DNA of 32,000 bases from Desulfobulbus propionicus DSM 2032 (GCF_000186885.1 NC_014972.1:90001-122000), one strand, 5' to 3'; counted from the stretch's first letter, positions 14,469 through 29,977 are shown. Made by a program: numbers and translations. The notes: generated by a model not told the origin, from the sequence alone.

Positions 14469-14775
14469 GCGAGGTGCCCCCTGGAGCGGTTAGGGATGCG
14501 GCCGGAAAGTCCGGTCTCATCCCTTTTTTCAGGGGGGAGGACATCTGGGAAATTTTGGATGAGTCCTAGGCATGCGAGGAGCGTTGTCAGACGACGAATG
14601 CTGAACCCCTGGATTCTGTCAATAGGGGAAGGAAACAGCACGGCTCGCCATGCGATTGAACGGTGTCGTTCCCGGGTACCGTTGAAAAAGCCGGGGTTCT
14701 TTGTTGGTGATGCAATTGGCCGTGTAGGAAGCGATGCCGTCTTCGGTGCGCGCCTCGTTGCTGCCTTCCTGCTGA

Positions 14776-15933
14776 TCAGGGGCCGTCGTCATCGGTAAAC
14801 ATGCCGAGGCGAACCCGGATCGGCTCGATAATCCCTATCTGGCGTGAAAAATTGTTCAGCCCCTTGAGCAGCGGCGGGGTGATGATTTGGCCCTTGGCAA
14901 CGACCAGTGTCCCGTTTTTTGCCAGCACGTCGTCCAACGCCACCATGCCGACCCCGACCTGGTCCACGTGCAGGCTCAGCACCTGTTCCGGGCTGGCTGC
15001 CCGGACCGTGGCCAGGATGTTTAATATTCTTGGATTATAGACCTTTTTTTGCGACCGCATCAAGCCAAGCGCCTCGCCCCGGCCCTTGCCCTGAAAGAGT
15101 AGGCGGTCATACTCGGTGGCCGCTTTCAGCATCTGGGCGCCAAGCAGGATCTCCTCGTACATCGTTTCCCGCATGGCATCGGTGAATTCATCGAACCGTT
15201 TGCGCTGCAGGGCGATCATTTCAGTGACATTTTCCATCCTGGGAATCCGCTCCAGCAGTTTCCTCGCCGTTTCAGGGTGAGTATCGAACAATTCGGCCTC
15301 GCCAGGGGTCAGTTCCTGACCGGTGTAAAACTTGCTCAAAATTTCGCCCGGCAGGGTGATGCAGCCGATCTGGGAGAGCAGCGCGGCCATCTCGTACTGC
15401 CAGGGCTGCGGCAGGCGCAGCGACTCGGCGATGCGGACTGTGTACTCCCTGATGCGCAGTCCGGAACTACAGGCCAGCGGGCTGGTCATGCCGAGCAGTT
15501 CGCTGAGTACGCTGACGCAGCCCTTGAGCGTGTTCTGCAGCAGTTCCTGTTCCGCGGTGATCAGGCGGTGCTGGCGCAGGGCCAGCACCAGCGAGGTGAC
15601 GAACAGGGCCGGCGGGCAGGGCTTGGCGAGAAAGCGGAAGATCTGGCCGGTGTTGACCGCGTCGATGGCGGTTTCCCGGTCGGCGTGACCGGTGAGCATG
15701 AGGCGCACCGTATCGGGGTAGAGGTCTTTCACCAGCTTGAGCAGTTCAATGCCGTTCATGTTCGGCATGCGCATGTCCGAGACAATGACCGCGAACGGCC
15801 CATCTTCCTTGAGTTGCCGCAGGGCGGCCTCGCCGCTCTCGGCGGTCCGAATTTCAAAACGCCTGCGCAGGTGCCGCTCGATGGAACTGAGGATAGCGGG
15901 CTCGTCGTCGACGAGCAGGATTTTCTCGGTCAC
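14776..15933 (-). CDS. Response regulator: receiver domain plus degenerate HD-GYP-like output domain
   Basis: REC: ILLVDDEP...VIVSDMRMPNMNG...LTGHAD...FLAKP. The output domain aligns with HD-GYP, but LHDIGK is replaced by LSQIGC and the HHE..GYP block is absent. Confidence 0.75.
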   Translation of the reverse strand: MTEKILLVDDEPAILSSIERHLRRRFEIRTAESGEAALRQLKEDGPFAVIVSDMRMPNMNGIELLKLVKDLYPDTVRLMLTGHADRETAIDAVNTGQIFRFLAKPCPPALFVTSLVLALRQHRLITAEQELLQNTLKGCVSVLSELLGMTSPLACSSGLRIREYTVRIAESLRLPQPWQYEMAALLSQIGCITLPGEILSKFYTGQELTPGEAELFDTHPETARKLLERIPRMENVTEMIALQRKRFDEFTDAMRETMYEEILLGAQMLKAATEYDRLLFQGKGRGEALGLMRSQKKVYNPRILNILATVRAASPEQVLSLHVDQVGVGMVALDDVLAKNGTLVVAKGQIITPPLLKGLNNFSRQIGIIEPIRVRLGMFTDDDGP

Positions 15934-16619
15934 GGGTCCATCCTTTTGATGTGGTTGTCTGCTCGCGAAGTTCGTTCAATGGGCCGCCCGATTCCACGCC
16001 CCCTGCCTGCGCGAGCGAGCCGGTGGGCAAGTTGGACAATGACGAACAAGCAATTTCCGGGCGCGGTCATTGCCGGGTGTATTGGTCGTGTGCATCGCTG
16101 TCGCCGCGTTGTCCGATGGCTCTGGGGCAGGCACCGCTGGGGGCAATCGCCAAAGATCGCCCCCATCCCAACAACACGGTCGGTGTGCCCTTCCTGTCGA
16201 TTGGACCTGGGACCATCCTCAGCAGACCCGGCTGGTGTTCGATGCGGGAGTGGGACAAGGCGCCACCAGGATAACATGGCTAGGCCGCCTTGGCAGGCAG
16301 TATGTCCACAGGAGCGCCAACAAGTGATGTCCCTTGCAGGGCTTGCCACCGCTGCTGGTCGCCTGGTGGCTTCTTGGCGCCGTACGCTCGGTGGCAGGTG
16401 ATCCGTGGGCAGGGCGGTTGGTTGGTCCTGGCACTGATCGAGTCCAGCAGAGAAGATTCGACGGCACACCACATCCTCTTCCCAAGTCCGACCCATCAAC
16501 TGCTTTCATCTTGCCAGCCGTTTGCTCCTGATCGCTCATATTGAGAGCCTTGGTTTTTCCTCAGTTCTCAAAATCAGAACAGAAAAATCTGTTTTTCCGT
16601 TATTTTTTTTTCGCCAATC

Positions 16620-16635
16620 CGGCACAGGATTAGCA
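16620..16635 (+). promoter_or_regulatory. Candidate sigma-54 (-24/-12) promoter upstream of the methyltransferase
   Basis: cGGCACaggatTaGCa has GG-N10-GC spacing and one mismatch in the -12 TTGC. It is preceded by an A/T-rich tract (16570-16612). Confidence 0.45.
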
Positions 16636-16714
16636 GTTAAGAATGAGTTCCGAGAAGAGTGAAAAGGGCGGAACAGGGTTGGCTCGGCGACCATTGCCGG
16701 CCGACCGCATCTGT

Positions 16715-16760
16715 GCCGACGGGCCGCTCCGGGTTGAGAGACGGCCCGTCGGTGCTTTTT
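16715..16760 (+). terminator. Intrinsic-terminator-like hairpin in the methyltransferase leader
   Basis: GCCGACGGGCCG / CGGCCCGTCGGT (11 of 12 bp) with a 15-nt loop, followed by GCTTTTT. It lies about 190 nt upstream of ATG 16951. Confidence 0.5.
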
Positions 16761-16950
16761 GGCACAAGAAGCAAAAACGGTGGCGCCCTGTCGCCACGCC
16801 GCCCGCCCCTGGCCGGACAAAGGGTCTGCCGCCGGGGAACAAAGCGCCCATTGCAGGGGAGCAAGGGCACCGCCCTCTCCAGACCACGCCTCGCCCTCAC
16901 CCGACACCAGCAGACCAGCTCGCGCCATCCATGACGAGACCACCGGCACC

Positions 16951-18462
16951 ATGATCGAGATCGACTACACCCACGGCTACTACCAAGAACTCAACCCGCT
17001 CCGGGCCAGGCTGGCGCTGCTGTTCGCGGGCCTCCATTGCCCGATCATGGACACGGCCTGCGAACTGGGCTTTGGCCAGGGGATGAGCATCAACCTGCAT
17101 GCCGCCGCCTCCCCGGTCGCGTGGCACGGCACGGACGCCAACCCGGCGCACGTCGCCTTTGCCCGCGAGATCGCGCGGGCCGCTGGCAGCGAGGCCCGGC
17201 TGGCGGCCGAACCGTTTGCCGAATACGCGGCCCGCCGCGATATGCCCGAATTCGACTTCATCGGCCTGCATGGGGTGTGGAGTTGGGTCTCGGCGGAGAA
17301 CAAGGCCCTCCTGGTTGATTTCATCCGCCGCCAGCTCAAACCGGGAGGCGTGGTCTACGTGAGCTACAACACCCTGCCCGGTTGGGCCGCGTTCGCGCCT
17401 ATGCGGCACCTGCTGGTCACGCACGCGGCGACCCTCGGCGCGGCCGGCCAGGGCATCGTCGAGCGTATCGACCAGGCCCTCGAATTTACCGAGGCCCTGC
17501 TGGCCGCAAAGCCCCTGTTCGCCGATCACCACCCCACCGCGGGACAGAAGCTGGCGCAGTGCAAGCGGCAGGATCGAGCCTACCTGGCGCACGAATTCTT
17601 CACCCGCGACTGGCAGCCCATGCACTTTGCCGAGATGGCCGCTAGCCTGGCGCCGGCCCTGCTCGACTTTGCCTGCTCGGCCCATTTTCCGGACCATCTC
17701 GACATGGTCAACCTCAACCAGGAGCAGCGGGCCTTTTTGGCGGAAATCCCGGATCCGGTTCTGCGCGAGGGGGTGCGGGACTTCTTTGTCAACCAGTGGT
17801 TCCGCCGCGACTACTGGGTCAAAGGGATGCGACGCCTACCCCCGGTCCGCCAAGCCGAACTGCTCACCGAGGCGCGGCTGGTGCTGCAGACCCCGCGCGC
17901 CGAGGTGGGCCTGCAGGTTCGAGGGGTGCTGGGGACGGCCGAGATGGACGGACGTATCTACGGACCGCTGCTCGACCAGCTGGCTGACCATCGACCGCGC
18001 AGCCTGGGCCAACTTGAGCGAAGTGTGTGCACCCCGGAGCTGACTCGAGCCCACCTGCACGAGGCGGTGCGGATCCTGGTCGCAGCCGGGCACCTGGCCC
18101 CGGTCCAGGAAGAGGCCGCAGTCAAGCGGGCGAGAAAACACACCGACCGCTGCAATGCCCACCTGCTGCACCAAGCTGGCTGCAGCGATGCGGTCGCCAT
18201 CCTCGTCTCACCGGTGACCGGCGGCGGCGTGCCGGTGGACCGTGTCGAGCAGCTGTTCCTGCTGGCCCTGACCCAGGGGCGCAGGCAGCCAGCGGAATGG
18301 GCTGCCCGGGCCTGGGAGACCCTGGTCGCGGAGGGGCGGCAACTCCTCCGCGAAGGTGTGGCCCTGGCGACCGCGGCGGACAACCTGGACGAACTCCATG
18401 CCCTGGCCGATCGTTTTGCGGCCCGGCGGCTGCCGGTCCTGCAGGCCCTGCAGGTGGTGTGA
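16951..18462 (+). CDS. Class I SAM-dependent methyltransferase with a C-terminal 'methyltransferase regulatory domain'
   Basis: Start placed at the internal ATG 16951 (MIEIDYTHGYYQELNP...). ACELGFGQGMS (SAM motif I), FDFIGLHGVWSWVS, LKPGGVVYVSYNTLPGW. The Pro/Ala/Arg-rich 64-aa upstream extension was rejected. Confidence 0.8.
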   Translation: MIEIDYTHGYYQELNPLRARLALLFAGLHCPIMDTACELGFGQGMSINLHAAASPVAWHGTDANPAHVAFAREIARAAGSEARLAAEPFAEYAARRDMPEFDFIGLHGVWSWVSAENKALLVDFIRRQLKPGGVVYVSYNTLPGWAAFAPMRHLLVTHAATLGAAGQGIVERIDQALEFTEALLAAKPLFADHHPTAGQKLAQCKRQDRAYLAHEFFTRDWQPMHFAEMAASLAPALLDFACSAHFPDHLDMVNLNQEQRAFLAEIPDPVLREGVRDFFVNQWFRRDYWVKGMRRLPPVRQAELLTEARLVLQTPRAEVGLQVRGVLGTAEMDGRIYGPLLDQLADHRPRSLGQLERSVCTPELTRAHLHEAVRILVAAGHLAPVQEEAAVKRARKHTDRCNAHLLHQAGCSDAVAILVSPVTGGGVPVDRVEQLFLLALTQGRRQPAEWAARAWETLVAEGRQLLREGVALATAADNLDELHALADRFAARRLPVLQALQVV

Positions 18463-18507
18463 CCCGTGGCCGGACCAAGCCGACGAACCCTTTGCCGTGA
18501 GACGACC

Positions 18508-18693
18508 ATGCCGACAAACACCGATCTGTCCTCCGTACCCGAGGGCGAGAACTTCCCGGCCGCGATGGCGGCGGACAGGTACCGCCAGTCCCGGCTGGGT
18601 GGTCCGCGGGTCATCCTCTACCTGCTCGCGGCCGACTTGGTGGTTGTGGCGGCCGCCATGGTGGGGGTGGTCTGCTGGTGGCTGCTGCGCTAG
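18508..18693 (+). CDS. 61-aa tail-anchored microprotein, copy 1
   Basis: ATG 18508. C-terminal TM LGGPRVILYLLAADLVVVAAAMVGVVCWWLLR. A paralogue with the same conserved C-terminal half sits at 21156-21329. The SD is weak. Confidence 0.45.
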   Translation: MPTNTDLSSVPEGENFPAAMAADRYRQSRLGGPRVILYLLAADLVVVAAAMVGVVCWWLLR

Positions 18694-18946
18694 CGGCCGT
18701 AGTGGCCTGTCATCATGACCGGGCAAGGGTTCGCCATCGGTCATTGTGCGAGCCAACGGCGTGCCAAGAATCCCCCAGAACGAGCCAGGTGGGCTGCCAG
18801 GACGCCTGGACGAAGGGTTCGTCCTGTTCGGCGGCGGCCGAGGAGCGACCCAAAAAACACTATCATGGCAAGATACGCAGCAGGCCGGATAGCCGACTTG
18901 GAGCAGAGACCGGCTTCGCGGAAAAGAACGCTTCCTCCCCCGCGAT

Positions 18947-18961
18947 TGGCATCGATCTTGG
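18947..18961 (+). promoter_or_regulatory. Sigma-54-like promoter with a degenerate -12 element, upstream of repeat gene A
   Basis: TGGCATCGATCTTGG is the paralogous site of 21588-21602 but has GG instead of GC at -12. Confidence 0.35.
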
Positions 18962-19050
18962 CCGGCCCCTGATGCTGAGGGCGAAAGTCCCCAGACGGTA
19001 CATTCGCCAGCAAACGGCGGGCCACTAAAAACAATCAAATGGAGCGAACA

Positions 19051-20852
19051 ATGAAGAAGCGATTTGTAGCCATCAGTCTCACCTTGGGCTCGCTGGCCCT
19101 GGCCGGCGGAGCCCAGGCCGAAACCCTGGTTGTCACTCAGAAGGTGACCGTGGGCAGTAACACGACCGTGACCCAGGGGGATCAGAACACTGCTGCCATT
19201 CAGGCCATGAACGCGGTCAATACTCTCGGTACGCTCAACGGGACCAGCCAGAAGGTGGAGATGGGCACCTACACCCTGGGCTTGAGCCAAACGGGGGCGA
19301 CAACAACCACTTCGTCCCAGGCCGCGAACACCGTCAAAGCCGACACCATAAGCGCAGCCTTTTCGCAGGAGGTGAACAGTACAGCCGCTGCCAGCGCCAT
19401 CGCGCTGACCCAGTCGGCGCAGGGCGTAGCGAATGTCCAGGCCCTCAACCTGGCTGGTGCAACCACGGTCGTTGGCAGTTCGGGTGCGTTCGCCCAGAAA
19501 GTGACGCCGACCGGGGCCGCTGGCGACATCACCTGACCCAGGTCACCGCCACGGGAAAGGACAGTGTGCAGGCGGCCAACGTCCTGGCCGGCACAACTGT
19601 TACCAGTGCGACGCAGGCAGTGGATAACGACACCACCGGCGCGGGGGATATCACCCTGGCACAGGCCACTGGTACCAGCAACATCTCCCAGGCCGTCAAT
19701 CACACCGAAGCAGGGACCATCACAGCCCTCAACCAGAACATCAACACCGTGGAGCTGGTGCTCGGTCAGACCGGCGGGAGCAAAAACTCGCAGGTGGGCA
19801 ACCATGCCAAGGCCCTCACCAATGTAACGACTCTCGCTCAGCAGACGAAAGCTTCCCGCAAGATCGACATGGATCAGGTCACTGGTGGCGATGGCAATCT
19901 GCAGGCACTCAACGCCGCCGAGGTGACCAAGGTCAGCGGTACGGTCTCCCAGACAGTCAGCACCGGCCTTACGAACATCGATCTCAAACAAGAACAGCAA
20001 ACAAGCAGCCAACAGACCGCCAACTACCTGACCTCTCCCGGCACCGTGGCCTCTGTCACCCAGGTCTCCTACTATAACAGCCCCAGAATAGCGACCCTGC
20101 TCCAGGACAACACGACTACCGCCCAGCAGGCCTTGAACTTCATAGAAATGACAGGTGGGGCTGATAAGCTCACCAAGGGAACCCAGACCGTGGGCCTTGC
20201 CACCCTGGACATGGGCCAGGGTGAGACGGGCGCCAACAGCGGCTCCGACCAGGCGGTGAACCTGCTCTTCTTGGACGACAACCTCGTCTTGGCAACGCAA
20301 ACAGTGACAGCGGACATTGATCTCACCCAGGCAAAAGGCGCGGATAACACCCAGGCCGTCAACTCCGTCTCCGGTAAGAACATCACCACCAAACTGACCC
20401 AGACGGTCACTGGCGTCAGCGATAACATGACCCAGGGCGGCGATGGGGCGAGCAATAACTTCCAGGCCGGCAACTTCCTGGATGTCGAGTATGCGAATGG
20501 CACCATCGCTTCCGTCCAGCAGAACTACAACGCCACCACCTTAGCGCGCATGAGGCAGGATGGGATCACTTCGGGCGTGCAGGGGCTGAACGTGATCGAC
20601 GCCTCGCGGTCGGGCGTAAAAGTGACCAGCGCGGACCAGAATGTGGTTGTACCGGCGCTGACCATGCGACAGGGGGAGAGCAAAGGGACTGCGACCAGCG
20701 TCCAGGCGGGGAACACGGTGCTCGCCGGATCCACCGCGGTTGGCGGCAAGGTTGATCAGGACGTGCTCGTCGCCACCACCCTGGCCATGACCCAGGCGAA
20801 CGCCACCACATCCACCCAGGCGGCCAACTTTACCGGCAACCGGCCGCGGTAA
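19051..20852 (+). pseudogene. Secreted Gln/Asn-ladder repeat protein, paralogue A, split by a 1-nt frameshift (frame 1 to the TGA at 19534-19536; continues in frame 0 from 19533)
   Basis: GGAG lies upstream of ATG 19051. Signal peptide MKKRFVAISLTLGSLALAGGAQA. Collinear with paralogue B throughout. ACC-TG here versus ACC-CTG in B explains the frame break. It could be a sequencing error or a genuine mutation. Confidence 0.7.
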
Positions 20853-20904
20853 CCCACTGACCAGGAGCCCGCCCAGGGGGATCGGGGCTGGCGTTGTTGT
20901 TGTC

Positions 20905-21111
20905 GTGGGCGAGAGAACGAGCGCCGACACCCTGGCGTGGCCGTTGGCGGCCCGGGCGGCCTGGGAGACCCTGGCCGCGGAGGGGCGGCAACTCCTTCGC
21001 GAGGGGGCGCCCCCGGCAATCGCGGCCGACAACCGGAACGAACTGCACACCCTGGCCGACCGATTTGCCGCCCGGCGGCTGCCGGTCCTGCAGGCCTTGC
21101 TGGTGGTGTGA
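20905..21111 (+). pseudogene. Relic of the methyltransferase C-terminus (duplication scar)
   Basis: AARAAWETLAAEGRQLLREG....AADN.NELHTLADRFAARRLPVLQALLVV parallels the last ~55 aa of 16951-18462. The rest of the gene is missing. Confidence 0.75.
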
Positions 21112-21155
21112 CCACAGCCCGGGCCGAGCCGACGAACCTCACTCGAGAGACGACC

Positions 21156-21329
21156 ATGCAGACCAATGCCGACCTGTGTTCCGTTCTTGAAAGCGAGACC
21201 GTCCCGACCGCGACGGATGGGGAACGCCGCGACCCACTGGGTGGTCCGCGGGTCATCCTTTACCTGCTGGTGGCCGACCTGTTACTCGTGGCCGCGGTCG
21301 GGGTGACCGCCTGGTGGCTGCTGCGCTAG
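21156..21329 (+). CDS. 57-aa tail-anchored microprotein, copy 2
   Basis: MQTNADL...LGGPRVILYLLVADLLLVAAVGVTAWWLLR, paralogous to 18508-18693 and in the same relative position. Confidence 0.45.
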   Translation: MQTNADLCSVLESETVPTATDGERRDPLGGPRVILYLLVADLLLVAAVGVTAWWLLR

Positions 21330-21587
21330 GGGGGCAGGGCGCGGACTGTCGTCTTGAGCGGTGGCGGAGGGAACCACCGTTCATTCTGAAAGACGGAAGC
21401 CGTGCGCAAGAACCTCGGAGCCGACCCATCAGCATCGGAGGAACGGCGATCCAGAATGCCGCACAAGTCGGAGGTGGTCGCGGAAAAGAGAAAAAATTCA
21501 GAAAAAAAGGAGGATGGGAAAGGAGCCGGCTTGTTGCCAGCGGTCTACAAGAAACTAAAAAGAAAAATGTCGTCTCTGTTCTCTGCC

Positions 21588-21602
21588 TGGCATCGATGTT
21601 GC
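21588..21602 (+). promoter_or_regulatory. Sigma-54 (-24/-12) promoter for repeat gene B
   Basis: TGGCATCGATGTTGC fits TGGCAY-N5-TTGC with exact GG-N10-GC spacing. It lies 82 nt upstream of ATG 21684. Confidence 0.6.
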
Positions 21603-21683
21603 CTTAGCGCTGACAGAGAGAAACGACAGCAGGAGTTACATCACCACAACACATAGCACCAAACCCTAAAAAAGGAGCAAAGT

Positions 21684-23474
21684 ATGAAAAAACGTTATGT
21701 CGCAATCAGCCTGACCCTGGGGTCGCTGGCCCTGGCCGGTGGAGCCCAGGCCGACACCTGGGACGTGACCCAGAAGGTGACCGTGGGCGCAAACACGACC
21801 GTGACCCAGGGGGACGGGAACACTTCCGCCACCCAGGCGATGAACGCCATCGACGTGGAGACCCTCAATGGCACCAGCCAGGCGGTTGAGATGGGGACTT
21901 TTACCTTGACCTTGACGCAAACGGGTGCGTCAACGGCTACTTCGAACCAGGCCGCCAACTATGTTCAAGCGGACACTATTTCTAAAGCCTTTTCGCAGGA
22001 CGTGAACAGTGCGGCGGCAGCCAGCGCCATCGCGCTGACCCAGTCGGCCGTCGGCACTGCCAATATCCAGGCGCTCAACATGGCCGACGGCGGAACGGTT
22101 GGCAGTACGGGAATATTCTCTCAGGAAGTCACCCCTACCGGAGCGGCAGGCGACATTACCCTGACGCAGACCACTACAATGGGCGCTGACAGTGTGCAGG
22201 CAGCGAACTATATCAACGGCACGACCATCACAAGTGCAATCCAGACAGTCGACAACGACAACACCGGTAACGGGGATATTGCCCTTGTGCAGCCGATCGG
22301 GACAGGAAGCATCACCCAGGCGGTCAACTATGCCACGGCTGAAACCATCACCTCGCTTGCGCAGAATATTAAAACCGTGGATCTCGTGCTTGGTCAGGCC
22401 GGCGGGACCAGCAATGTGCAGGTGGGGAACTATGCGCAGGCCACTACAGTCGTTGATACGCTTCTGTCACAGAAGACTGACGCTTCCGGCATGATCGACA
22501 TGGATCAGATCACCGCTGGCTCCGGCAATCTGCAGGCGGTCAATGCCGCGGATGTAAAATCGGTTACCGGCGCTGTCACCCAGGCGGCAACGACCGGCGC
22601 CACGAACATCAATCTTAACCAGAACAACCAGACTAACAGCCAGCAGTTCGTCAACTACCTGACCTCGACCGGAACGGTGGCCTCCGTCACGCAGGATTAC
22701 CTGAATAGCGGTAAGACCGCCACTCTTGTTCAGGACATGGCTACCGCCTCACAACAGGCACTGAACGCCATTGAAATGACTGGTGGCGCTGACGTGCTGA
22801 CCAAGGGAACGCAGACCGTGACCCTCGCCACCTTGAGCTTGAGCCAGGGGGAAACTGCCGATAACACGGGCTCCAGCCAGGCGGCTAACCTGCTTCTGTC
22901 GGGGAACGACATTGCTGAAGCGTCCCAGACAGTGACGGCGGATATCGATGTGACCCAAGAGCTGGGGACCGGTAACCTTCAGGCCGTTAACCTCGCAGCT
23001 GGCATTGACATAACCACCAGCCTCACCCAGACAATCAATGGTACATCCGATACTTTCGAGCAGGGCGGCACCGGCGCCGCAACCAACACCCAGGCTGGCA
23101 ACTACCTGGATGTCGGCGCAACTGGTACGGTTAAATCGGTGGTACAGGACTATAGCGCGACCGCCTCTGTCCTCATGGATCAGGATGATATCACGAGTGG
23201 CGTGCAGGGGTTGAACGTTATTGACGCCTCGGCATCTGGCGTGACGGTGACCAGTGCGGACCAGAACGTCACCGTTCCCTCCCTGACCATGCACCAGGGA
23301 CGGGACGTCGGGACGACAACCAGCGTCCAGGCCGGCAACGCGGTGATCACAGATGCCGTCGCCACCGGAGGCGCGGTCAATCAGGATGTAAGTGTCACCA
23401 CCCTGGCCATGACCCAGGCGAATGGCAACAAATCCATCCAGGCCGCCAACTATGTCGGCTCCATGCCCAATTAA
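21684..23474 (+). CDS. 596-aa secreted Gln/Asn-ladder repeat protein, paralogue B (candidate fibre or amyloid-like subunit)
   Basis: AAGGAG SD. Signal peptide MKKRYVAISLTLGSLALAGGAQA|DT. There are 15 Q-x-x-N motifs (mostly QAxN) spaced 34-43 aa apart (mean 38.2). T/Q/A/N/G-rich, no Cys. Confidence 0.85.
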   Translation: MKKRYVAISLTLGSLALAGGAQADTWDVTQKVTVGANTTVTQGDGNTSATQAMNAIDVETLNGTSQAVEMGTFTLTLTQTGASTATSNQAANYVQADTISKAFSQDVNSAAAASAIALTQSAVGTANIQALNMADGGTVGSTGIFSQEVTPTGAAGDITLTQTTTMGADSVQAANYINGTTITSAIQTVDNDNTGNGDIALVQPIGTGSITQAVNYATAETITSLAQNIKTVDLVLGQAGGTSNVQVGNYAQATTVVDTLLSQKTDASGMIDMDQITAGSGNLQAVNAADVKSVTGAVTQAATTGATNINLNQNNQTNSQQFVNYLTSTGTVASVTQDYLNSGKTATLVQDMATASQQALNAIEMTGGADVLTKGTQTVTLATLSLSQGETADNTGSSQAANLLLSGNDIAEASQTVTADIDVTQELGTGNLQAVNLAAGIDITTSLTQTINGTSDTFEQGGTGAATNTQAGNYLDVGATGTVKSVVQDYSATASVLMDQDDITSGVQGLNVIDASASGVTVTSADQNVTVPSLTMHQGRDVGTTTSVQAGNAVITDAVATGGAVNQDVSVTTLAMTQANGNKSIQAANYVGSMPN

Positions 23475-23487
23475 CCTATTTTCTGGT

Positions 23488-23527
23488 ACCAGCCCCGGGA
23501 AACCGGGGGGCTGGTGTTTCTGGTTTC
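23488..23527 (+). terminator. Rho-independent terminator after repeat gene B
   Basis: GC-rich hairpin ACCAGCCCCGG-gaaa-CCGGGGGGCTGGT followed by GTTTCTGGTTT. Confidence 0.6.
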
Positions 23528-23706
23528 GGGGAAGAGATGGCGGGCACCAGCTGGATCTGATTGAGCACCTGGCAATGGCCTGCGGAACTGAGGCCCCGTC
23601 AGTGGCTGGATTCAGGAGTATCACCGCCTCGCACCACGTGGCTCCACCGTCCTGCCCGGGATGTACAGCGGTGGGCGACAACAGTAACCGGCCGGAGGAA
23701 GGCCTC

Positions 23707-24150
23707 ATGCACAATCAGTGGCGAACACGTCCACCGGCACCACCCGTGCCTGGTCGACGCCCATGGAAAACCATCAGCCGGTTGAAGGCCTTTGCGCTCG
23801 TGGTGGCAGTCGTGCTGCTCGCACCGGACCCGGCCGCCAGCTCGATCCGCAACCGGCTGTCCCCCTCCTACCCGAGCATCCCGCCGGACTACACCGTGCT
23901 GCAGCCTGGCCGTATGGTGGCCGAGGCCAAGGTCGATTTCCCGGCCTACTACGTCGACCGCACCAACGGCTTCCGGGTGACCGCCCCGGATGGCCGACAA
24001 TTCGTGGTCGACAATGTCGAAAAGCCCAAATGCGCTTTCTACGGAACCTACATCAACAGCGAGGAGAACGCCCTCTCTAGTCCGGGCGCGGGCATGACCA
24101 TCAACAGTTCCGTCTACGTGGGGGAGGTAAATTTTGAAAACTGCAGGTAA
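23707..24150 (+). CDS. 147-aa secreted or membrane-anchored hypothetical protein (possible secretion accessory factor)
   Basis: GGAGGA lies upstream of ATG 23707. Hydrophobic segment AFALVVAVVLLAP after a basic N-terminus. Overlaps the next gene by 17 nt. Confidence 0.55.
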   Translation: MHNQWRTRPPAPPVPGRRPWKTISRLKAFALVVAVVLLAPDPAASSIRNRLSPSYPSIPPDYTVLQPGRMVAEAKVDFPAYYVDRTNGFRVTAPDGRQFVVDNVEKPKCAFYGTYINSEENALSSPGAGMTINSSVYVGEVNFENCR

Positions 24151-25165
24151 TACGTTTCGTCGATCGGCCATCAGGGCAGGCGCCGTTCTCTGTGCGCTGG
24201 CGTTTTTGTCCGGATGCGCCAGCGAGTACCGGACCAAGGTCAGCACTGATTTCAAGGAGAAGCCCAAGGTCAGCCAGACGAACATGTCCGGCGCCATCGC
24301 CTGCATGGCCAACACCCTGCAGCACAGCGACACCGCCAGCGCCTACATCCTTTTGGTGCGCGACGTCAAGGACGGCACGGTCAAGGACAGCGACCTGACC
24401 GATGGGCCGCTGTCGGACGCCGGCCGGATCATGCTGCTCAACACCCTGAGCGAGCATCTCTATCCGCACGCCGGCCTGGTACCGGACACCTTTCCCTTCA
24501 TCTACCTGGCAACCGGCCGGGAGGATGTTGGCCTGAACCGGTTCGGCCTGCCGTCGCCGGAGAACATGCAGCAGTTCCTGGGCATCTACGAGCCGATTAT
24601 CCAGGCGGCGCGCAAGAAGAAGAACCTGCCGCCGGTGGGCAACATCGTGCCGCTGGTGATCAGCGCCCAATTTTCCCGCTTCGATTCGGACAACGCCGCC
24701 CAGGACGGCATCGCGCACAATATCGGCACCCGCACCAAGCAGCTGGCGGAAAACGAGGAAGATGACCGCTGGCGCAAGTTCGCCGGCGAGGCGAGCGTGG
24801 GCCTGACCTCCTCGGCCCGGTTGATCTCACTGGTCATCAACCTGATAGACCCGCGCAACAACTTGGTGGTTGCCTCGCAGTCGTTTGACCTGATTTTCTA
24901 CCGCGACAACAAAACCTACCGCCTGCGCGCCGCGCTCGGCGAAGGCTACTACGGGTTCTCCAAGGACAACGTGGTGGTCGAAGGCGTACACAGCGCCCAG
25001 AAGCTGCTCCTCGACGCCGCCGCCCTGTGGATCCTCAACAAGGCCTACGGTGACCAGGAGCGGTTCGCGACCTGCTTCAGCCCGGAGGAACAGCAGGTGA
25101 CCCTGTCACCGGTGGAGTTCCACCAGAAGAAGGAAGAACCGCCCACCGTGGGGAAAACGAAATGA
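24134..25165 (+). CDS. CsgG/HfaB-like outer-membrane lipoprotein (candidate secretion channel)
   Basis: TTG start with GGAGG 6 nt upstream. Lipobox AFLSG|C. Family-like blocks by eye: ILLVRDVKDGT...SDAGRIMLLNTL and LVISAQFSRFDS...LISLVINLIDPRNNLVVASQSF...HSAQKLLLDAAALWILN, compared with E. coli CsgG VSVYNIQDETG...ATAMLVTAL and MVEGSIIGYES...IAVNLRVVNVSTGEIL. Confidence 0.5.
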   Translation: MKTAGNTFRRSAIRAGAVLCALAFLSGCASEYRTKVSTDFKEKPKVSQTNMSGAIACMANTLQHSDTASAYILLVRDVKDGTVKDSDLTDGPLSDAGRIMLLNTLSEHLYPHAGLVPDTFPFIYLATGREDVGLNRFGLPSPENMQQFLGIYEPIIQAARKKKNLPPVGNIVPLVISAQFSRFDSDNAAQDGIAHNIGTRTKQLAENEEDDRWRKFAGEASVGLTSSARLISLVINLIDPRNNLVVASQSFDLIFYRDNKTYRLRAALGEGYYGFSKDNVVVEGVHSAQKLLLDAAALWILNKAYGDQERFATCFSPEEQQVTLSPVEFHQKKEEPPTVGKTK

Positions 25166-25929
25166 TCGGGTGGGGCCACACCTGGTGGATGGCGGCTGTG
25201 GTGGCTCTGCTGCTTTTCGCGGACGAGCCTGCCGCGGCGGACAGCTGGACAGTGACCCAGAAGGCGACGATCGGCAGCCCGACCATCCTGGCCCAGGGCG
25301 ATAACCAGGGATCAACCCAGGCTATCAATGCCATTATGCTCGGGGACGGGGGGACGGTGGTCAAGGCGACGCAGACCGTCGAGGTGGCCGGCGGCCTGAC
25401 CCTCAGCCAGGCCGGGGGCAGCGGCAGCCGCCAGGCCGGCAACCTGGTCGAGGCGGGAACGATCACCGAGGCGTTGCAGACGCTGTCCGCCGGCGCGACA
25501 ACGATTGTGCAGACCACTGCCGGCGACGATAATTGGCAGGCCCTGAACATGGCCAATGCCACCGGAGGCGGTGGCGGTATCGGCTCGATCGGGCAGACCG
25601 CCACGGTCGAGTCGCTCAATTTCGCCCTTGCCGGCGGTGAAGGCAACCGCCAGGCCGGCAACCTCGTGACGGGATCCTCGGCCGGCAGTTCGATAACCCA
25701 GACGCTGACCTGCAGTGGCACGGTGACTTACGCCGACAACTATGTGATCGCCGGAGTGAATAACCTGCAGGCCGGAAACGCGGTGTTCGGGGGCACAAAT
25801 GTCGCCAGTGTGACCCAGGCGTTCACGGCCAACGGTGTGGAGGTGACCGCACCGCCTGAAATCGATGGAGCCAACAACATCAAGGCTGCCAATTACCTGG
25901 AGACGGGCCATGGTTCGCCCGATCCCTGA
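25162..25929 (+). CDS. 255-aa secreted Gln/Asn-ladder repeat protein, short paralogue C
   Basis: The ATG overlaps the CsgG-like stop (ATGA). The N-terminus DSWTVTQKATIGSPTILAQGDNQGSTQAINAI parallels B. Six QAxN/KAAN motifs are spaced 35-39 aa apart. Confidence 0.8.
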   Translation: MIGWGHTWWMAAVVALLLFADEPAAADSWTVTQKATIGSPTILAQGDNQGSTQAINAIMLGDGGTVVKATQTVEVAGGLTLSQAGGSGSRQAGNLVEAGTITEALQTLSAGATTIVQTTAGDDNWQALNMANATGGGGGIGSIGQTATVESLNFALAGGEGNRQAGNLVTGSSAGSSITQTLTCSGTVTYADNYVIAGVNNLQAGNAVFGGTNVASVTQAFTANGVEVTAPPEIDGANNIKAANYLETGHGSPDP

Positions 25930-25999
25930 GCTGCATCCGGTCTGGTCGGCCAAGACTCTCCGTGACACTTCGCCAGACGGCACCAAAGACAGGGGGCTC

Positions 26000-26476
26000 A
26001 TGAACAGACGCTTCCTCCTCCTGATTGTTCTGCTGCTCCTGCTGGCCAGCCAGTCCGTTCTCGCGCAGGAACCGCCGCAATCCCTGCTCGACCGGCAGGT
26101 ACGGTCGGTCTATTACGAGACCGACAGTTACGGCTCGCAGCCGCTGCGAGTCACCTTGGGTGAACTCATCAAGCACGGCCTGTTGCCTGGTGACTGGGAC
26201 CTGGTAGCGGACACGGTGTGGCACTACATCGTCCCCACCGGCGACCACGGAGGTCGTGTGCGCTTCGAGTTCACGGTGATCACCGACCCGCAATGGCGCC
26301 ACCTGTTCACTAACGAAGTAATTGTCACCGGCCTCCAGGTGGGGGGGCGGGACCTCCCCAGGCCGGAAATTTGGGCCGTTCTGCTGCCTTTGGCTGTCGA
26401 GGTGCGCGCCCGGGTACGCCTGCCTGCCGAGTCGCAGGCCTCCACTCTGGCATGGAAGGCGGTACTCAAACCGTAG
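26000..26476 (+). CDS. 158-aa secreted hypothetical protein
   Basis: ATG 26000 is preceded by AGGGGG. Signal peptide MNRRFLLLIVLLLLLASQSVLA|QE. Confidence 0.6.
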   Translation: MNRRFLLLIVLLLLLASQSVLAQEPPQSLLDRQVRSVYYETDSYGSQPLRVTLGELIKHGLLPGDWDLVADTVWHYIVPTGDHGGRVRFEFTVITDPQWRHLFTNEVIVTGLQVGGRDLPRPEIWAVLLPLAVEVRARVRLPAESQASTLAWKAVLKP

Positions 26477-26576
26477 CTTCTGCCACCGCAGTCACTGCCG
26501 CGTCAGGCATCACGAATGCTGACGGCACCTGCAAACTTCAGCCCCGGATGTCTCCGGGTCCTTGTAAGGAATCAGC

Positions 26577-27227
26577 ATGGACAAGAGCGTATTTCTGAAC
26601 AGACGCCGGCCAGAACGGCGCGTGCTCCTCTTCTTCGCCCTGCTTGCCGGCATCCTGGCCGGACCGTTTCAGGGCGAGGCGTCTGCCGCGGATGCGAAGG
26701 GCAATTTCGCGGTGCGCGGCGTTGGCTCGCTGACCTGTCCCCAGCTGGTCAGCTCCCTTACCGCCAAGGACGAACAGGCCAAGCGGGAGTCCATCCTCCT
26801 CTACATAAGTTGGATCGACGGTTATCTCAGCCACGTCAATCGGGGCGAGTCCGCTACCTTTGACATTGTCCCCTTCGTGCAAACCCAGGACATGCTGGCT
26901 GTGGTGCTCACCCAATGCCAGACGCGCCAGGACGTCCTGGTGGAAACGGTCCTCCTCCAGACCCTCGGCGCACTGGCACCGGCCCGGGTGCACACCGATT
27001 CACCCGTGGTCGCGGTGCGTGTGGGTAAACGCGAAGGCAACCTGCGCAAGGAAACCATTCTAGCCATTCAGAACAAGCTGATCGAACGAAATCTGTTCAA
27101 GGGAAGCGCCAAAGGAGAGTTCAACGACGCTTCGCGCAAGGCCCTGGCCGCTTTTCAGAAGTCGGTCAAGCTCGATGGAACCGGGTTCCCGGACGTCGAC
27201 ACCATTATTCGGCTGCTGCTCTCCTGA
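26577..27227 (+). CDS. Secreted protein with a C-terminal peptidoglycan-binding (PG_binding_1-like) domain
   Basis: AAGGA SD. Signal peptide ...LLAGILAGPFQGEASA. C-terminus ILAIQNKLIERNLFKGSAKGEFNDASRKALAAFQKSVKLDGTGFPDVDTIIRLL is typical of PG-binding repeats. Confidence 0.7.
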   Translation: MDKSVFLNRRRPERRVLLFFALLAGILAGPFQGEASAADAKGNFAVRGVGSLTCPQLVSSLTAKDEQAKRESILLYISWIDGYLSHVNRGESATFDIVPFVQTQDMLAVVLTQCQTRQDVLVETVLLQTLGALAPARVHTDSPVVAVRVGKREGNLRKETILAIQNKLIERNLFKGSAKGEFNDASRKALAAFQKSVKLDGTGFPDVDTIIRLLLS

Positions 27228-27306
27228 TTTCCCGCACCAAACTCCCCTGCCCCTCCGTCCAGCTGGTGGGGCCACCTGTCACAACCCATCTATCAAGCAT
27301 AGAAAC

Positions 27307-27804
27307 ATGAGAAATAATCTGCCCTGCGCCGGCGTCCTGATGGCCGCCATCGGACTCCTGATGGTAACCGTCTTGGTAGACGTGCAGGCCGACCCTCGCA
27401 CGCGGACTATCGAGCGCGCCGAGAGCTACCGCCTCCGTGCCGAGGCCGGCGACGTCGATGCGCAGACCGAATACGGTTTTCTGCTGCTGGAAGGCATTTC
27501 GGTGGATAAAGATACACGTCAGGGGCTGCAGTTGCTGAAAAAGGCGGCTCGAAGGGGTTCGACCCGGGCCGCAAAACTGCTGGAACGACTGGAGGCGACC
27601 GGGCGCTACAAAGGGGCGGGTACTCAAACGCCGGCCCAGGTCGAGACCCCGGTCCAGGATATTTTGGCAGACGATTGCTGTGATGCTCCGGGGCAGGGCG
27701 CCAGTCTGAACGACCTTCAGCGCCAGGCCGAGCAGGGACTGGTACCGCGGCCATCGGTCCGTGAACAGCGACCTTGGCGGCCGCTGGCAGACCGCAACGA
27801 GTAG
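27307..27804 (+). CDS. Secreted or anchored Sel1-like repeat protein
   Basis: Hydrophobic N-terminus GVLMAAIGLLMVTVLV. AEAGDVDAQTEYGFLLLEGISVDKDTRQGLQLLKKAARRGSTRA resembles a Sel1/TPR-like repeat. Confidence 0.6.
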   Translation: MRNNLPCAGVLMAAIGLLMVTVLVDVQADPRTRTIERAESYRLRAEAGDVDAQTEYGFLLLEGISVDKDTRQGLQLLKKAARRGSTRAAKLLERLEATGRYKGAGTQTPAQVETPVQDILADDCCDAPGQGASLNDLQRQAEQGLVPRPSVREQRPWRPLADRNE

Positions 27805-27939
27805 GACAACGCTTGGAAATCCATTCTCCTACGTGTGCCGGCCAACAAAAGGAGATAGTTAGCAGGCTCTTTCAGGTATGAATGGCTTCACTTTTCTGGC
27901 TGACAAGAACAAAAACCATGTTTGAAATGCTACAGCCTC

Positions 27940-28425
27940 GGGGATGACCCGCGCAACGTGGCCCGGTATAGGCAGCAGTACGGTCAGCGAGTATCTGCAG
28001 CGTGTCCGGATGGCCGGGCTCGCCTGACCTCTCCCGCAGGGGTTCTCCGACCGGGCCCTGAAACAGCTGCTCTTCCTGTGCCCATGCCGCGCGAAACTGC
28101 CTGCTTACTCTGATTTGCACCAGATCCACAAAGAGCTGCAATCACGGCGGGGCGTGACCCTCAACCTGCTGTTCTGAACAACTGGTTCTGCTCGCCCTGT
28201 AGCCGCTTCCTTCCGTGTCCTGCGAGCTGGCCCGCTGGAAAAAGCCCACGGTCTAGCTCGATTACCATGTAGAGGTTGAGGGCTACTACTACTCCGTGCC
28301 CTACCGGCTGGTGAAGAAACAGGTGGACATCCAGTACACCGCCACCACCGTGGAGTGCCTGTGTCGGGGCGAACGGGTGGCCCGATTCGCCCGTGGTCGC
28401 GGCTTTTGCCGGTAAACTCAAAGGG
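27940..28425 (+). pseudogene. IS21-family istA transposase relic (frameshifts, stops, catalytic core deleted)
   Basis: Fragments across frames: GIGSSTVSEYLQRVRMAGL.WPLPQGFSDRALKQLLF, IHKELQSRRGVTLNLL and SCELARWKK, then a direct jump to DYHVEVEGYYYSVPYRLVKKQVDIQYTATTVECLCRGERVARFAR (IstA C-terminus). There is no istB. Confidence 0.7.
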
Positions 28426-28442
28426 ACAAGCTGCGACAGGCA

Positions 28443-28615
28443 ACCGTGGTGGCTCTCCAGAACAAGCTGATCGATTGCATTCTGCTCAAAGAGAGCACTC
28501 CGGCGGATTCAAAGATGCCCGCGCGTGGTCCTGGCCGCGTTGCAGAAATGGGTCAAGTACGACGGGACTGGGTTCCCGGACGTCGATACGATCAAGCGGC
28601 TGCTACTTCCCGGGT
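28443..28615 (+). pseudogene. Frameshifted duplicate of the PG-binding C-terminal domain of 26577-27227
   Basis: DNA blocks CAGAACAAGCTGATCGA and GGTTCCCGGACGTCGA are shared with 27070-27210. Peptides LQNKLIDCILLKE and (other frame) FKDARAVVLAALQKWVKYDGTGFPDVDTIKRLLL. Confidence 0.7.
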
Positions 28616-28770
28616 CTTTCCAATCTTGCTGTCGACCTCCCGAAGCGGTACCGGTCCGTTGCGCACCGACTGGACCGGAAAGGCGACAGTTTCTTGCCAC
28701 CCTTTCCCGCCACGTATAACGATCGGCGCATCTTAAAAAAATCTAGTTCATCCGGATATTACCACTCCTT

Positions 28771-28923
28771 CTAGCAGACTGTCGGACTTTCGGGAGCGAG
28801 GATCCGTAATGCACTGATTTTAGGTGTTTTTGTGTTTTCACCCCGCCCTAAAGCCAAACCGCAAAATAACGGAAACACGGTTAGTTGCAATACTTGACAG
28901 GCCAAAGCCCGACAGACTGCTAG
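28771..28923. repeat. 15-bp inverted repeat pair flanking a 123-bp lower-GC segment
   Basis: CTAGCAGACTGTCGG (28771-28785) versus CCGACAGACTGCTAG (28909-28923), 14 of 15 complementary. CCACTCC occurs just outside both arms (28762-28768 and 28934-28940). Confidence 0.5.
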
Positions 28924-29040
28924 CATCCATTAGCCACTCCCTGTTCTTTTGCCAAATGACAATGACCAAATAAAAAGCGCCGCAGTCCCCCATCAGCCGA
29001 GCATGTCGACCTGTTTCTGCACGGTCGCCTTGATTACACC

Positions 29041-29271
29041 AAGAAGATCAAAGTCTGCGGGCCGGGATGTGCCGCCAGCGACAAGACCATGCGGGTCGTC
29101 TAGGCGGCTCTGGCCGCCATGGGCGTTGACGTTACGGTGACCAAGGTGCAGGACTTTCAGGAATTTGTCTGATTGGGCGTTTTCACCACCTCGGCTGTGG
29201 TGATCGACGGCCAAGTCAGGTGTACTGGCCGGGTCCCGAAGCAGAGCGAAGTGGAGCGGTGGATCGGCTGA
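29041..29271 (+). pseudogene. Relic of a small thioredoxin-fold 'redox-active disulfide protein 2'-like gene
   Basis: A single frame reads KKIKVCGPGCAASDKTMRVV*AALAAMGVDVTVTKVQDFQEFV*LGVFTTSAVVIDGQVRCTGRVPKQSEVERWIG. It has no start codon, in-frame TAG and TGA, and the CxxC second Cys is replaced by Ser. Confidence 0.55.
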
Positions 29272-29308
29272 CAGAGTCTTTCAACGGGCCGGGTGTCGGG
29301 ATCGGCTG

Positions 29309-29977
29309 TCAGTGGGGGAAGAGCGTCTCGGCAGCGGCGATGACCTGGCCACTGGTAAAATCGTCCAGACCGCGGATGACCGTGTTGCAGGTTTCGTGCA
29401 TCGCCTCGAGAAAACCGACGACGCTGTCACCATGAACCGCGATCAGGGCTCTCTGCACCTGAGGACAGAGGTAGTGGAGGCAGCGGGGTGACTTGAACAG
29501 CCTAAGGGAGCAGCCGCTTTCGGTGAGGCAGTGACAAGGACCCGGCGCCGGGATCATTCCCTGGCCCAGGGCATTGTCGTGCTCACGCCTTTGCAGGCCG
29601 GTGAGCACATGGGCCAGGTGGAGCGCGTCCTGCGTCGGCTGGGAAATGAGGATATCGGCCAGGGAGAGCAGGACGTGGTGTTCCCCGGTGCAGCAGCCCA
29701 CCGGCGGCCGGTCGCACTGGTCGGCACAGAGCGTGCGGATCGTCGCCTCCTGTTCCTGGATGACGTCTAACTGGCGCACGTAGAGGGAATAGCCGATGGC
29801 CGCACGGCGGATGGTGTCCGGCAGCGTGCCGAGGTGACCGCTCAGCCGTTCGATTTGGTAACCGACCTGATCGTCTTCGAGAAAGGGGCAGGGAGCGACG
29901 GCCAGAAACTCGATGTCCGGCTGCACATGCCGGGTTGAATCCTCGGGCAGACTCTTCAGAAAGGTGTCGATGGGCAT
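29309..29977 (-). CDS. Cys-rich protein, possibly of the YkgJ-type CxxCxxCC zinc/iron-chelating family
   Basis: C-ADQ-C-DRPPVG-CC followed later by GPCHCLTESGCSLRLFKSPRCLHYLC, which resembles the family pattern. Weak, by eye. Confidence 0.45.
   Translation of the reverse strand: MPIDTFLKSLPEDSTRHVQPDIEFLAVAPCPFLEDDQVGYQIERLSGHLGTLPDTIRRAAIGYSLYVRQLDVIQEQEATIRTLCADQCDRPPVGCCTGEHHVLLSLADILISQPTQDALHLAHVLTGLQRREHDNALGQGMIPAPGPCHCLTESGCSLRLFKSPRCLHYLCPQVQRALIAVHGDSVVGFLEAMHETCNTVIRGLDDFTSGQVIAAAETLFPH

Follow-up and report, generated by a model that had tools for sequence, protein, structure and literature searches.

A putative, deeply divergent type VIII-like secretion cassette with a Gln/Asn-ladder repeat protein in Desulfobulbus propionicus DSM 2032

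The genome of Desulfobulbus propionicus DSM 2032 carries a compact set of genes for secreted repeat proteins and for a lipoprotein remotely related to CsgG, the outer-membrane component of curli export. The genes lie in a stretch of 32,000 nucleotides (GCF_000186885.1, NC_014972.1:90001-122000), referred to here as the window; coordinates count from its first letter unless another locus is named. An earlier note, made from the sequence alone, had described an 11-kb locus (16620-27804) of twelve collinear genes or relics resembling a CsgG-dependent fibre secretion system. A direct check of the open reading frames (ORFs) found all twelve features on the + strand, at or near the positions first assigned. 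The conserved unit is smaller than the 11-kb locus and consists of four genes. The larger unit of twelve does not hold together: four genes travel as a group, and a peptidoglycan-binding protein is joined to them by evidence from gene fusions. These genes, with the elements nearest to them, are as follows (aa, amino acids; nt, nucleotides).

21588-21602, + strand: sigma-54-type -24/-12 element, TGGCAT-N5-TTGC, 96 nt upstream of the intact major repeat gene
21684-23474, + strand: repeat gene copy 2, the intact major repeat protein, 596 aa
~23488-23526, + strand: GC-rich hairpin with a GAAA loop, followed by a T-rich tract
23707-24150, + strand: small secreted two-Cys protein, 147 aa, mature form ~100 aa
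24134-25165, + strand: lipobox (LSGC) lipoprotein, 343 aa
25162-25929, + strand: short (third) repeat protein, 255 aa, starting on an ATGA overlap
26577-27227, + strand: secreted protein with a C-terminal PG_binding_1 domain (Pfam E 9e-6)

The order of at least one major repeat gene, a gene for a two-Cys protein of 115-147 aa, the lipoprotein gene and a short repeat gene is found in every fetched locus that is long enough. It occurs in Ca. Thiothrix moscowensis, T. fructosivorans, Leucothrix pacifica, Cocleimonas and several Thiotrichaceae metagenome-assembled genomes, as well as in Arenicella xantha and several Desulfobulbaceae-like metagenome contigs. One metagenome-assembled genome, Thiotrichaceae S015_18, has two paralogous cassettes (L010 and L011 in our numbering of related loci), with lipoproteins 46% and 34% identical to that of the window. 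A Thiomargarita contig holds a fragment of the lipoprotein gene only. In a distant branch (L019 3099-6601 and L020 3529-7032) the first three genes keep the same order. There they encode a 185-aa secreted protein built of QAANxI units, a 115-aa two-Cys protein ending in NVNCN, and a lipoprotein fused to PG_binding_1. The genes on the 3' side of this branch encode DUF4384, OmpA-family, sigma-factor (Sigma70_r2) and caspase-like Peptidase_C14 proteins. No other exporter gene is conserved in the cassette.

Thiothrix-type loci contain an additional lipobox lipoprotein that is absent from the window (L002 9716-10393; L004 4815-5513; L018 12063-12752). Its C-terminus carries one or two repeat units and ends in ...HA(M/V/I)NY(L/M)G. 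This protein may seed the repeat proteins from a lipid anchor.

The mature 596-aa protein splits fully into 15 units of 30-42 aa, with a mean of 38.2. The pattern Q..Q..Q..N occurs 15 times in it, compared with 0.79 expected and a maximum of 4 in 2000 composition shuffles. By unit count and shuffles, the original description of the repeat (a 38-aa period, three Gln and one Asn, up to 15 units) was accurate. A hidden Markov model (HMM) of the unit recovers 179 units in 26 proteins, 15 to 16 in the largest and 5 to 8 in most of the short ones, with the consensus QxxxxxxxLTLxQxxGTxNxQAxNxxxAxTxx. Conservation across these units is 100% for the third Gln and for the Asn, 92% for the second Gln and 65% for the first Gln; among the columns of the family, those of the Gln/Asn ladder are conserved best. 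Homologues of the 596-aa protein number 29. The subunits are free of Cys and rich in Gln, Asn, Thr, Ala and Gly. Copy 2 has a Sec signal peptide, a mature N-terminus DTWDVTQ, units of the pattern Q..L.L.Q..G..N.QA.N and a C-terminal QAANYVG. These features are widely shared: a Sec signal peptide is present in nearly all family members, a mature N-terminus (D/G)(S/T)W-x-(V/I)-x-Q in most of them, and a C-terminus Q-A-x-N-Y-x-G in most proteins of the major type. By region, conservation in the family is highest in the terminal units. The short protein (25162-25929) has ~6 units, partly degenerate, and the short proteins encoded just 3' of the lipoprotein gene mostly end in (I/V/T)-K-A-A-N-Y-(L/F/Y). 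By analogy with curli, we propose that the short protein is a minor subunit, acting as nucleator or anchor.

An AlphaFold2 model of the 596-aa protein, built from an 18-sequence alignment, is all-beta with three strands per unit (predicted local distance difference test, pLDDT, 90.6; predicted template modelling score 0.91). Strands run from mature residue 3 to four residues short of the C-terminus, with no helix and no cap. The ladder residues would face inward in this model. Structure prediction had been suggested as a check, and what it returned was a confident beta-solenoid, not a disordered chain. Prediction of this type has a good record with curlins, where AlphaFold2 solenoid models of CsgA homologues matched fibres solved by cryo-electron microscopy (PMC10192328).

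The sequence family stands apart. Pfam and NCBIfam scans covered ten proteins of the window. The repeat proteins of copy 1, copy 2 and the short gene, together with nine distant homologues, gave no Pfam match at E <= 1; the three window proteins gave no NCBIfam match, and the family profile found nothing among PDB sequences. With hhalign the family scored 0.5% against CsgA, and the 179-unit profile 1.7% against 10 E. coli curlin repeats. Because no relation to curlin can be detected by sequence or profile, the label of an unrecognised Gln/Asn-ladder repeat family stands. A UniRef name for the Arenicella homologue, 'Curlin associated repeat-containing', was considered and set aside; it has no Pfam support. 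Foldseek comparison of the model with the PDB gave no significant match (best E 0.16). Neither in sequence nor in fold do the repeat proteins match a characterised family. The weak neighbours in the fold search are parallel beta-helices (alginate lyases, Ag43, pertactin, tailspikes), and a CsgA structure appears at rank 47.

These neighbours would also suit a different end product. The repeat proteins could be exported by a CsgG-like channel and then remain monomeric, or bound to the cell as beta-helix adhesins or a coat, with no polymerisation and no amyloid-like fibre. The parallel beta-helices nearest in fold are monomeric, Thr-rich outer faces are typical for binding surfaces, and the Thiothrix-type lipoprotein with C-terminal repeat units could simply anchor a monomer. 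If the curlin rise of 4.8 A per turn is assumed (PMC10192328), fifteen turns give ~7 nm, already a sizeable stalk. In contrast, the model lacks the N- and C-terminal caps that monomeric solenoids normally have, and the terminal units, where monomers would meet, are the best conserved in the family. A conserved pair of major and minor proteins with distinct C-terminal motifs also follows the logic of nucleated polymerisation. Curli set the precedent here, with ATP-free (adenosine triphosphate-free) export through CsgG coupled to assembly outside the cell. A monomeric product is rather unlikely on this evidence, and the polymerising subunit is the reading preferred here.

The lipoprotein encoded at 24134-25165 has the lipobox AFLSGC, whose Cys is nearly invariant across the family. 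Neither Pfam nor NCBIfam matched it at E <= 1, the CsgG models (PF03783) included, and a profile of its family did not find CsgG among PDB sequences. A word-indexed search returned 45 homologues, none with a Pfam domain; an exhaustive HMM search found 66 cluster representatives among 1.84 billion proteins. The AlphaFold2 model combines an alpha/beta core with two very long hairpins (170-197/217-239 and 244-268/271-283). When it was compared with the PDB by Foldseek, ranks 1-25 were all CsgG (4uv3, 6l7c, 7brm, 6si7, 4q79, 4uv2), with E from 3e-9 to 1e-5 and probability 1.0. The top match was 4uv3, the membrane-inserted form, at E 3e-9 and probability 1.0. HpaA, FlgT, GNA1162, LpoB and PelC came below CsgG.

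Profile-profile comparison agrees with the fold search. A broad alignment of 47 sequences, distant representatives included, was compared by hhalign with 13 annotated CsgG/HfaB proteins from E. coli and from plasmids of ten other genera. The result was a probability of 93.7% and E 1.9e-7 over 208 columns, spanning the lipobox through both hairpins. Only with broad alignments on both sides was the negative hhalign result for CsgG reversed. In the hairpin strands a conserved polar face alternates i,i+2 (Q190, G192, N196, G198, R200 in the first; F255, R257, N259, R263, R265 in the second), as would be expected for strands that line a pore. The 'CsgG/HfaB-like blocks' of the earlier note cannot be detected by Pfam or NCBIfam but are seen by both the fold search and the profile-profile comparison. 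The proposed search for CsgG in 24134-25165 had the same mixed outcome, with no match to curated profiles, and a CsgG fold and the 93.7% match by the other route. We conclude that the lipoprotein belongs to the CsgG superfamily, as a very divergent member beyond the reach of the curated family models. The analogy with CsgG would make it a pore and the secretion channel of the system.

Peptidoglycan-binding domains recur in this lipoprotein family. Among 53 distant lipoprotein homologues, C-terminal fusions to PG_binding_1 occur in 15/53 and to SPOR in 3/53, together 18/53. These fusions link the separate PG_binding_1 gene of the window to the system. That gene is kept 3' of the cassette in L016, with 51% aa identity, and is absent from L021. 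Its product (26577-27227) is proposed to be a peptidoglycan tether of the channel complex.

The same domains would also suit a protein that faces the periplasm. The lipoprotein might share the CsgG core fold and yet form no pore, serving instead as a peptidoglycan-associated scaffold or regulator, with the repeat proteins periplasmic or exported by some other route. HpaA, FlgT, GNA1162, LpoB and PelC do rank after CsgG in the fold matches, the PG_binding_1 and SPOR domains of many family members are what one might expect of a periplasmic envelope protein, and we know of no curli CsgG with a domain of this type. The hairpins, moreover, are the lowest-confidence parts of the model. Against these points, the 25 best fold matches are all CsgG, headed by its membrane-inserted form, and the profile-profile alignment extends through both CsgG hairpins. 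The hairpin segments are long paired strands with alternating conservation, and the cassette holds no conserved gene for another exporter. A non-pore role is improbable, and an export channel continues to be the reading that we favour for the lipoprotein.

The small two-Cys protein is the third constant partner. In the window its two Cys lie in ...PKCAFY...EVNFENC-end, and the proteins of related loci have two conserved Cys and end in ...EVNF(E/D)NC(Q/R). Homologues are encoded directly 5' of the lipoprotein gene in every fetched locus that covers that position. The stop of the two-Cys gene overlaps the start of the lipoprotein gene by 17 nt, and the short repeat gene begins on an ATGA overlap with the lipoprotein gene; the three export-side genes are coupled by overlapping start and stop codons. 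At 24134-24150 the same nucleotides encode, in two frames, NFENC-stop and the start of the lipoprotein (TTG, MKTA...). An overlap of the same 17 nt is present in L002 (7010-7026). The two-Cys protein has no relation in Pfam or the PDB. With hhalign its family gave 0.1% against E. coli CsgE and 0.2% against CsgF; a 16-sequence two-Cys family compared with a 9-sequence CsgF family reached 8%. The earlier note had recognised no CsgE- or CsgF-like sequences, and these profile comparisons (0.1-8%) bear it out.

Upstream of the major repeat genes there are elements of the sigma-54 type. The pattern TGGCAY-N5-TTGS has just two matches in the 32-kb window, one before each major repeat gene, where the chance mean is 0.47. 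Similar elements occur at -98 (L014, ~7564), -87 (L016) and -96 (L008) from the major repeat gene. L021 has a GG-N10-GC variant of the element and, beside the cassette, a gene for an NtrC-type sigma-54 activator. Judged by its sequence, a sigma-54 promoter would drive the major repeat gene. Between this gene and the export genes, where a terminator had been claimed, there is a plausible GC hairpin followed by a T-tract, and a terminator scan matches it weakly. Its stability is unexceptional for its composition (minimum free energy -25.1 kcal/mol, z -1.6). It is possible that the hairpin is an attenuating terminator. Scans for sigma-70 promoters and terminators were at chance level, and Rfam found no riboswitch or other RNA over 14000-29500.

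Around the conserved genes the window contains the remaining features of the locus, several of them products of duplication.

16951-18462, + strand: class I S-adenosylmethionine methyltransferase (Pfam Methyltransf_25 and MethyTransf_Reg, E 5e-30)
18309-23476, + strand: tandem duplication of a unit with the methyltransferase 3' end, tiny ORF, leader and repeat gene
18508-18693, + strand: tiny ORF 1, with a C-terminal transmembrane segment
18947-18961, + strand: sigma-54-type element with a degraded -12 (TTGG), 92 nt upstream of copy 1
19039-20852, + strand: repeat gene copy 1, frameshifted paralogue of the major subunit gene
20959-21108, + strand: relic of the methyltransferase C-terminus (82% aa identity over 50 aa)
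21156-21329, + strand: tiny ORF 2, with a C-terminal transmembrane segment
26000-26476, + strand: secreted 158-aa protein, no family match
27307-27804, + strand: Sel1-repeat protein (Sel1 E 1.5e-6, just below the Pfam cut-off)

A 2.63-kb tandem repeat relates 18309-20854 to 20958-23476, at 74-86% nt identity, through eight collinear repeat families spaced 2622-2649 nt apart. This duplication accounts for tiny ORF 2 and for the methyltransferase relic. The duplicated pair of tiny ORF and repeat gene had been reported as two copies; the duplication is real, and copy 1 is no longer intact. Near 19531 it has one C less than copy 2 in a CCC run, a 1-bp deletion that shifts the frame and divides the gene into pieces at 19039-19536 and 19566-20852. 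The second piece is 100% identical over 428 aa to Despr_0102, which is annotated as a fragment. One inserted base restores a protein of 15 units. The mature N-terminus of copy 1, AETLVVTQ, has lost the family-invariant Asp and Trp. From its sequence, copy 1 looks to be an older or decaying paralogue of the major subunit gene. The genome itself is finished and Illumina-polished (PMC3072085).

Related loci contain no counterpart of the methyltransferase, of either tiny ORF, of the 158-aa protein or of the Sel1 protein. L021, which has none of these four gene types, encodes a lipoprotein 89% identical to that of the window. Of the synteny expected elsewhere, the pairing of the repeat family with a CsgG-like lipoprotein is found, and the association of both with the methyltransferase is not. 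A methyltransferase that modifies the subunits was considered as part of the system and ruled out, because it is absent from every related locus. The tiny ORFs, whose proteins are 56% identical and whose DNA is ~77% identical, were likewise ruled out as conserved components; as no related locus has an equivalent, they may not be true genes. The 158-aa and Sel1 proteins are lineage-specific, and their membership in the system is unsupported.

Other observations concern the edges of the locus. At 28382-28607 there is a relic of the C-terminal PG-binding part of gene 26577-27227, 1387 nt downstream (73-80% nt and 43% aa identity), a second partial tandem duplication at the edge of the locus. Genes at 8769-9761, 10971-12383(-) and 12373-13734(-) encode an integrase, an HD-domain protein and a TraD/TraG-type coupling protein; the integrase and TraD/TraG-type neighbours hint that the locus was acquired horizontally. 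Directly upstream and divergent is a gene for a response regulator with an HD_5 (HD-GYP type) domain (14776-15933(-)), a hint of second-messenger control. Farther away, 5845-7101 and 7056-8366 are adjacent paralogous nucleotidyltransferase genes, GlgC/GlmU-like, with NTP_transferase and hexapeptide left-handed beta-helix domains. This pair (5845-8366) is unrelated to the fibre cassette. A further reading, in which the locus is a remnant that was acquired horizontally, is decaying and has lost its function in D. propionicus, is very improbable. In its favour, copy 1 is frameshifted, relics of the methyltransferase and PG-binding genes lie in or next to the locus, and an integrase and a TraD/TraG-like gene lie upstream. 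Against it, copy 2 and the three export-side genes are intact with all family-invariant residues and coupled overlaps kept, and near-identical intact proteins recur in independent metagenomes.

The cassette can be set beside several known systems. Like curli, it has an outer-membrane lipoprotein of the CsgG superfamily, as judged by fold and profile-profile comparison. The subunits are in both cases Sec-dependent, Cys-free repeat proteins, rich in Gln, Asn, Thr, Ala and Gly, that form, here by prediction, uncapped beta-solenoids with conserved Gln/Asn ladder positions, and both systems have a major and a minor repeat protein. A small accessory gene lies directly 5' of the channel gene, where csgF lies in curli; only the position is shared. 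Unlike curli, the channel is below Pfam and NCBIfam detection and 10-12% identical to CsgG, the repeat shows no profile similarity to the curlin repeat (PF07012), and homologues of CsgE, CsgF and CsgC were not detected. The peptidoglycan-binding partner or fusion is a further difference, as is the arrangement in a single co-directional cassette with the minor subunit gene 3' of the channel gene. Curli genes are under CsgD control, unlike this cassette with its sigma-54-type promoter element.

The pairing of a CsgG/HfaB-type lipoprotein with repeat proteins is also found in the Caulobacter Hfa holdfast anchor (HfaA, HfaB, HfaD). Rosettes of Thiothrix and Leucothrix are formed through holdfasts. 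Both genera are hosts of the cassette and are described as rosette-forming (PMC3368414), and in Caulobacter a CsgG/HfaB-type lipoprotein is required for surface placement of curlin-like anchor proteins (PMC6707917). HfaB is annotated with CsgG as one family, unlike the window lipoprotein, which matches no curated model. Genes for holdfast polysaccharide were not noticed beside the cassette in the loci examined.

Fap, the functional amyloid of Pseudomonas with the subunit FapC and the outer-membrane channel FapF, is similar in having a dedicated operon for a secreted Gln/Asn-rich repeat subunit, and its repeats are of similar length, ~37 aa. No Fap-related match was obtained in Pfam or NCBIfam for any of the ten window proteins, in agreement with the earlier statement that no fap-type genes are present. 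FapF is a beta-barrel outer-membrane protein, unlike the CsgG-fold exporter here, and FapC has three repeats separated by linkers where the present subunit has 15 contiguous units. PelC, HpaA, FlgT, LpoB and GNA1162 are, like the window protein, lipidated outer-membrane or periplasmic proteins with the shared alpha/beta core. All of them rank under every CsgG chain as fold matches, and to our knowledge they lack the two long hairpins of CsgG. Taken by analogy, the system would work like the curli (type VIII) pathway and the Hfa anchor, its kinship to CsgG holding at the superfamily level only.

Several points weigh against a curli-like system. The curated CsgG models match none of the 53 distant lipoprotein homologues at E <= 0.01, and the narrow lipoprotein profile gives a probability of only 2.4% against the single E. 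coli CsgG with hhalign. The lipoprotein model is of moderate confidence (pLDDT 65.7, with hairpin loops below 50), its TM-scores (template modelling scores) to CsgG are only 0.3-0.54 at 10-12% identity, and a highly charged insert sits at the tip of a hairpin. Homologues of CsgE, CsgF and CsgC are not detectable. The repeat has ~38 aa and three strands, with three Gln and one Asn, whereas the curlin unit is a strand-arc-strand of ~23 residues with two strands and a QX10Q kernel (PMC10192328). The structures that weakly resemble the solenoid are monomeric beta-helix enzymes and adhesins. Finally, fibre formation, polymerisation and the pore are inferred by analogy. The demonstrated part consists of the remote homology and fold likeness of the lipoprotein to CsgG, the predicted uncapped solenoid, and the tight, conserved linkage of the genes.

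On balance we take the cassette to serve secretion and assembly of the type VIII (curli-like) kind with very divergent or unrelated components, a reading that we hold to be probable though far from certain. The core of the original suggestion, a related export and assembly system, came through the comparisons that bear on it: a CsgG fold was found, the solenoid was predicted with confidence, the gene families are linked elsewhere, and no characterised family claims the repeat. Fibre or amyloid formation keeps the conjectural standing that it had at first.

The cassette might work as follows. The major subunit (21684-23474) would be strongly transcribed, probably from the sigma-54 promoter, and the hairpin would limit read-through into the export genes. 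The subunit would cross the inner membrane through Sec and remain unfolded in the periplasm. By analogy with CsgG, the lipoprotein would oligomerise in the outer membrane and form a narrow beta-barrel pore from its two conserved hairpins, tethered by the peptidoglycan-binding partner (26577-27227). The two-Cys protein, translationally coupled to the channel gene, could be a periplasmic or surface accessory in the slot of CsgE or CsgF, unrelated to either. Unfolded subunits would traverse the pore and fold outside as an uncapped, three-sided beta-solenoid, each ~38-aa turn adding three Gln and one Asn to the stacked ladders. Monomers could then dock head to tail through the conserved first (DSWxVTQ) and last (QAxNYxG) units to give a fibre. 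The short repeat protein, made in step with the channel, would be the cell-proximal nucleator or anchor in the slot of CsgB, and thin, adhesive fibres would result.

D. propionicus is non-motile and has been described as producing fimbriae (PMC3072085), which fits the fibre reading and proves nothing. More tentatively, the cassette could be a third, independently built dedicated fibre system of bacteria beside curli and Fap, one in which an ancient offshoot of CsgG exports a new three-sided solenoid; polymers of this solenoid would be the fimbriae of D. propionicus and perhaps also the fibres by which Thiothrix and Leucothrix attach or form rosettes. This broader proposal is conceivable, and we would not yet call it likely.

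A search of the literature on CsgG in Thiothrix, amyloid in D. propionicus, and CsgG-like and Hfa proteins found no description of the cassette. Its proteins are named 'hypothetical' where they are named at all, so that the cassette is invisible to annotation pipelines and to surveys for curli based on Csg profiles. As far as sequences and models can tell, this rare type VIII-like cassette has diverged deeply, encodes a structurally new subunit and includes a proposed tether to peptidoglycan; computationally it is well supported. Curli are the reference model for how amyloid is assembled under control outside the cell, and CsgG is in addition a much-used nanopore. A deeply divergent branch of CsgG, with different accessories, a peptidoglycan tether and another subunit architecture, would reveal which features of type VIII secretion are essential. 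If true, the tethering of the pore to peptidoglycan would be new to type VIII-like secretion, and the confidently modelled Gln-ladder solenoid would be a new scaffold for fibre engineering. For the organisms themselves, the cassette is a candidate that can be tested as the source of the D. propionicus fimbriae and of the surface fibres of filamentous sulfur bacteria.

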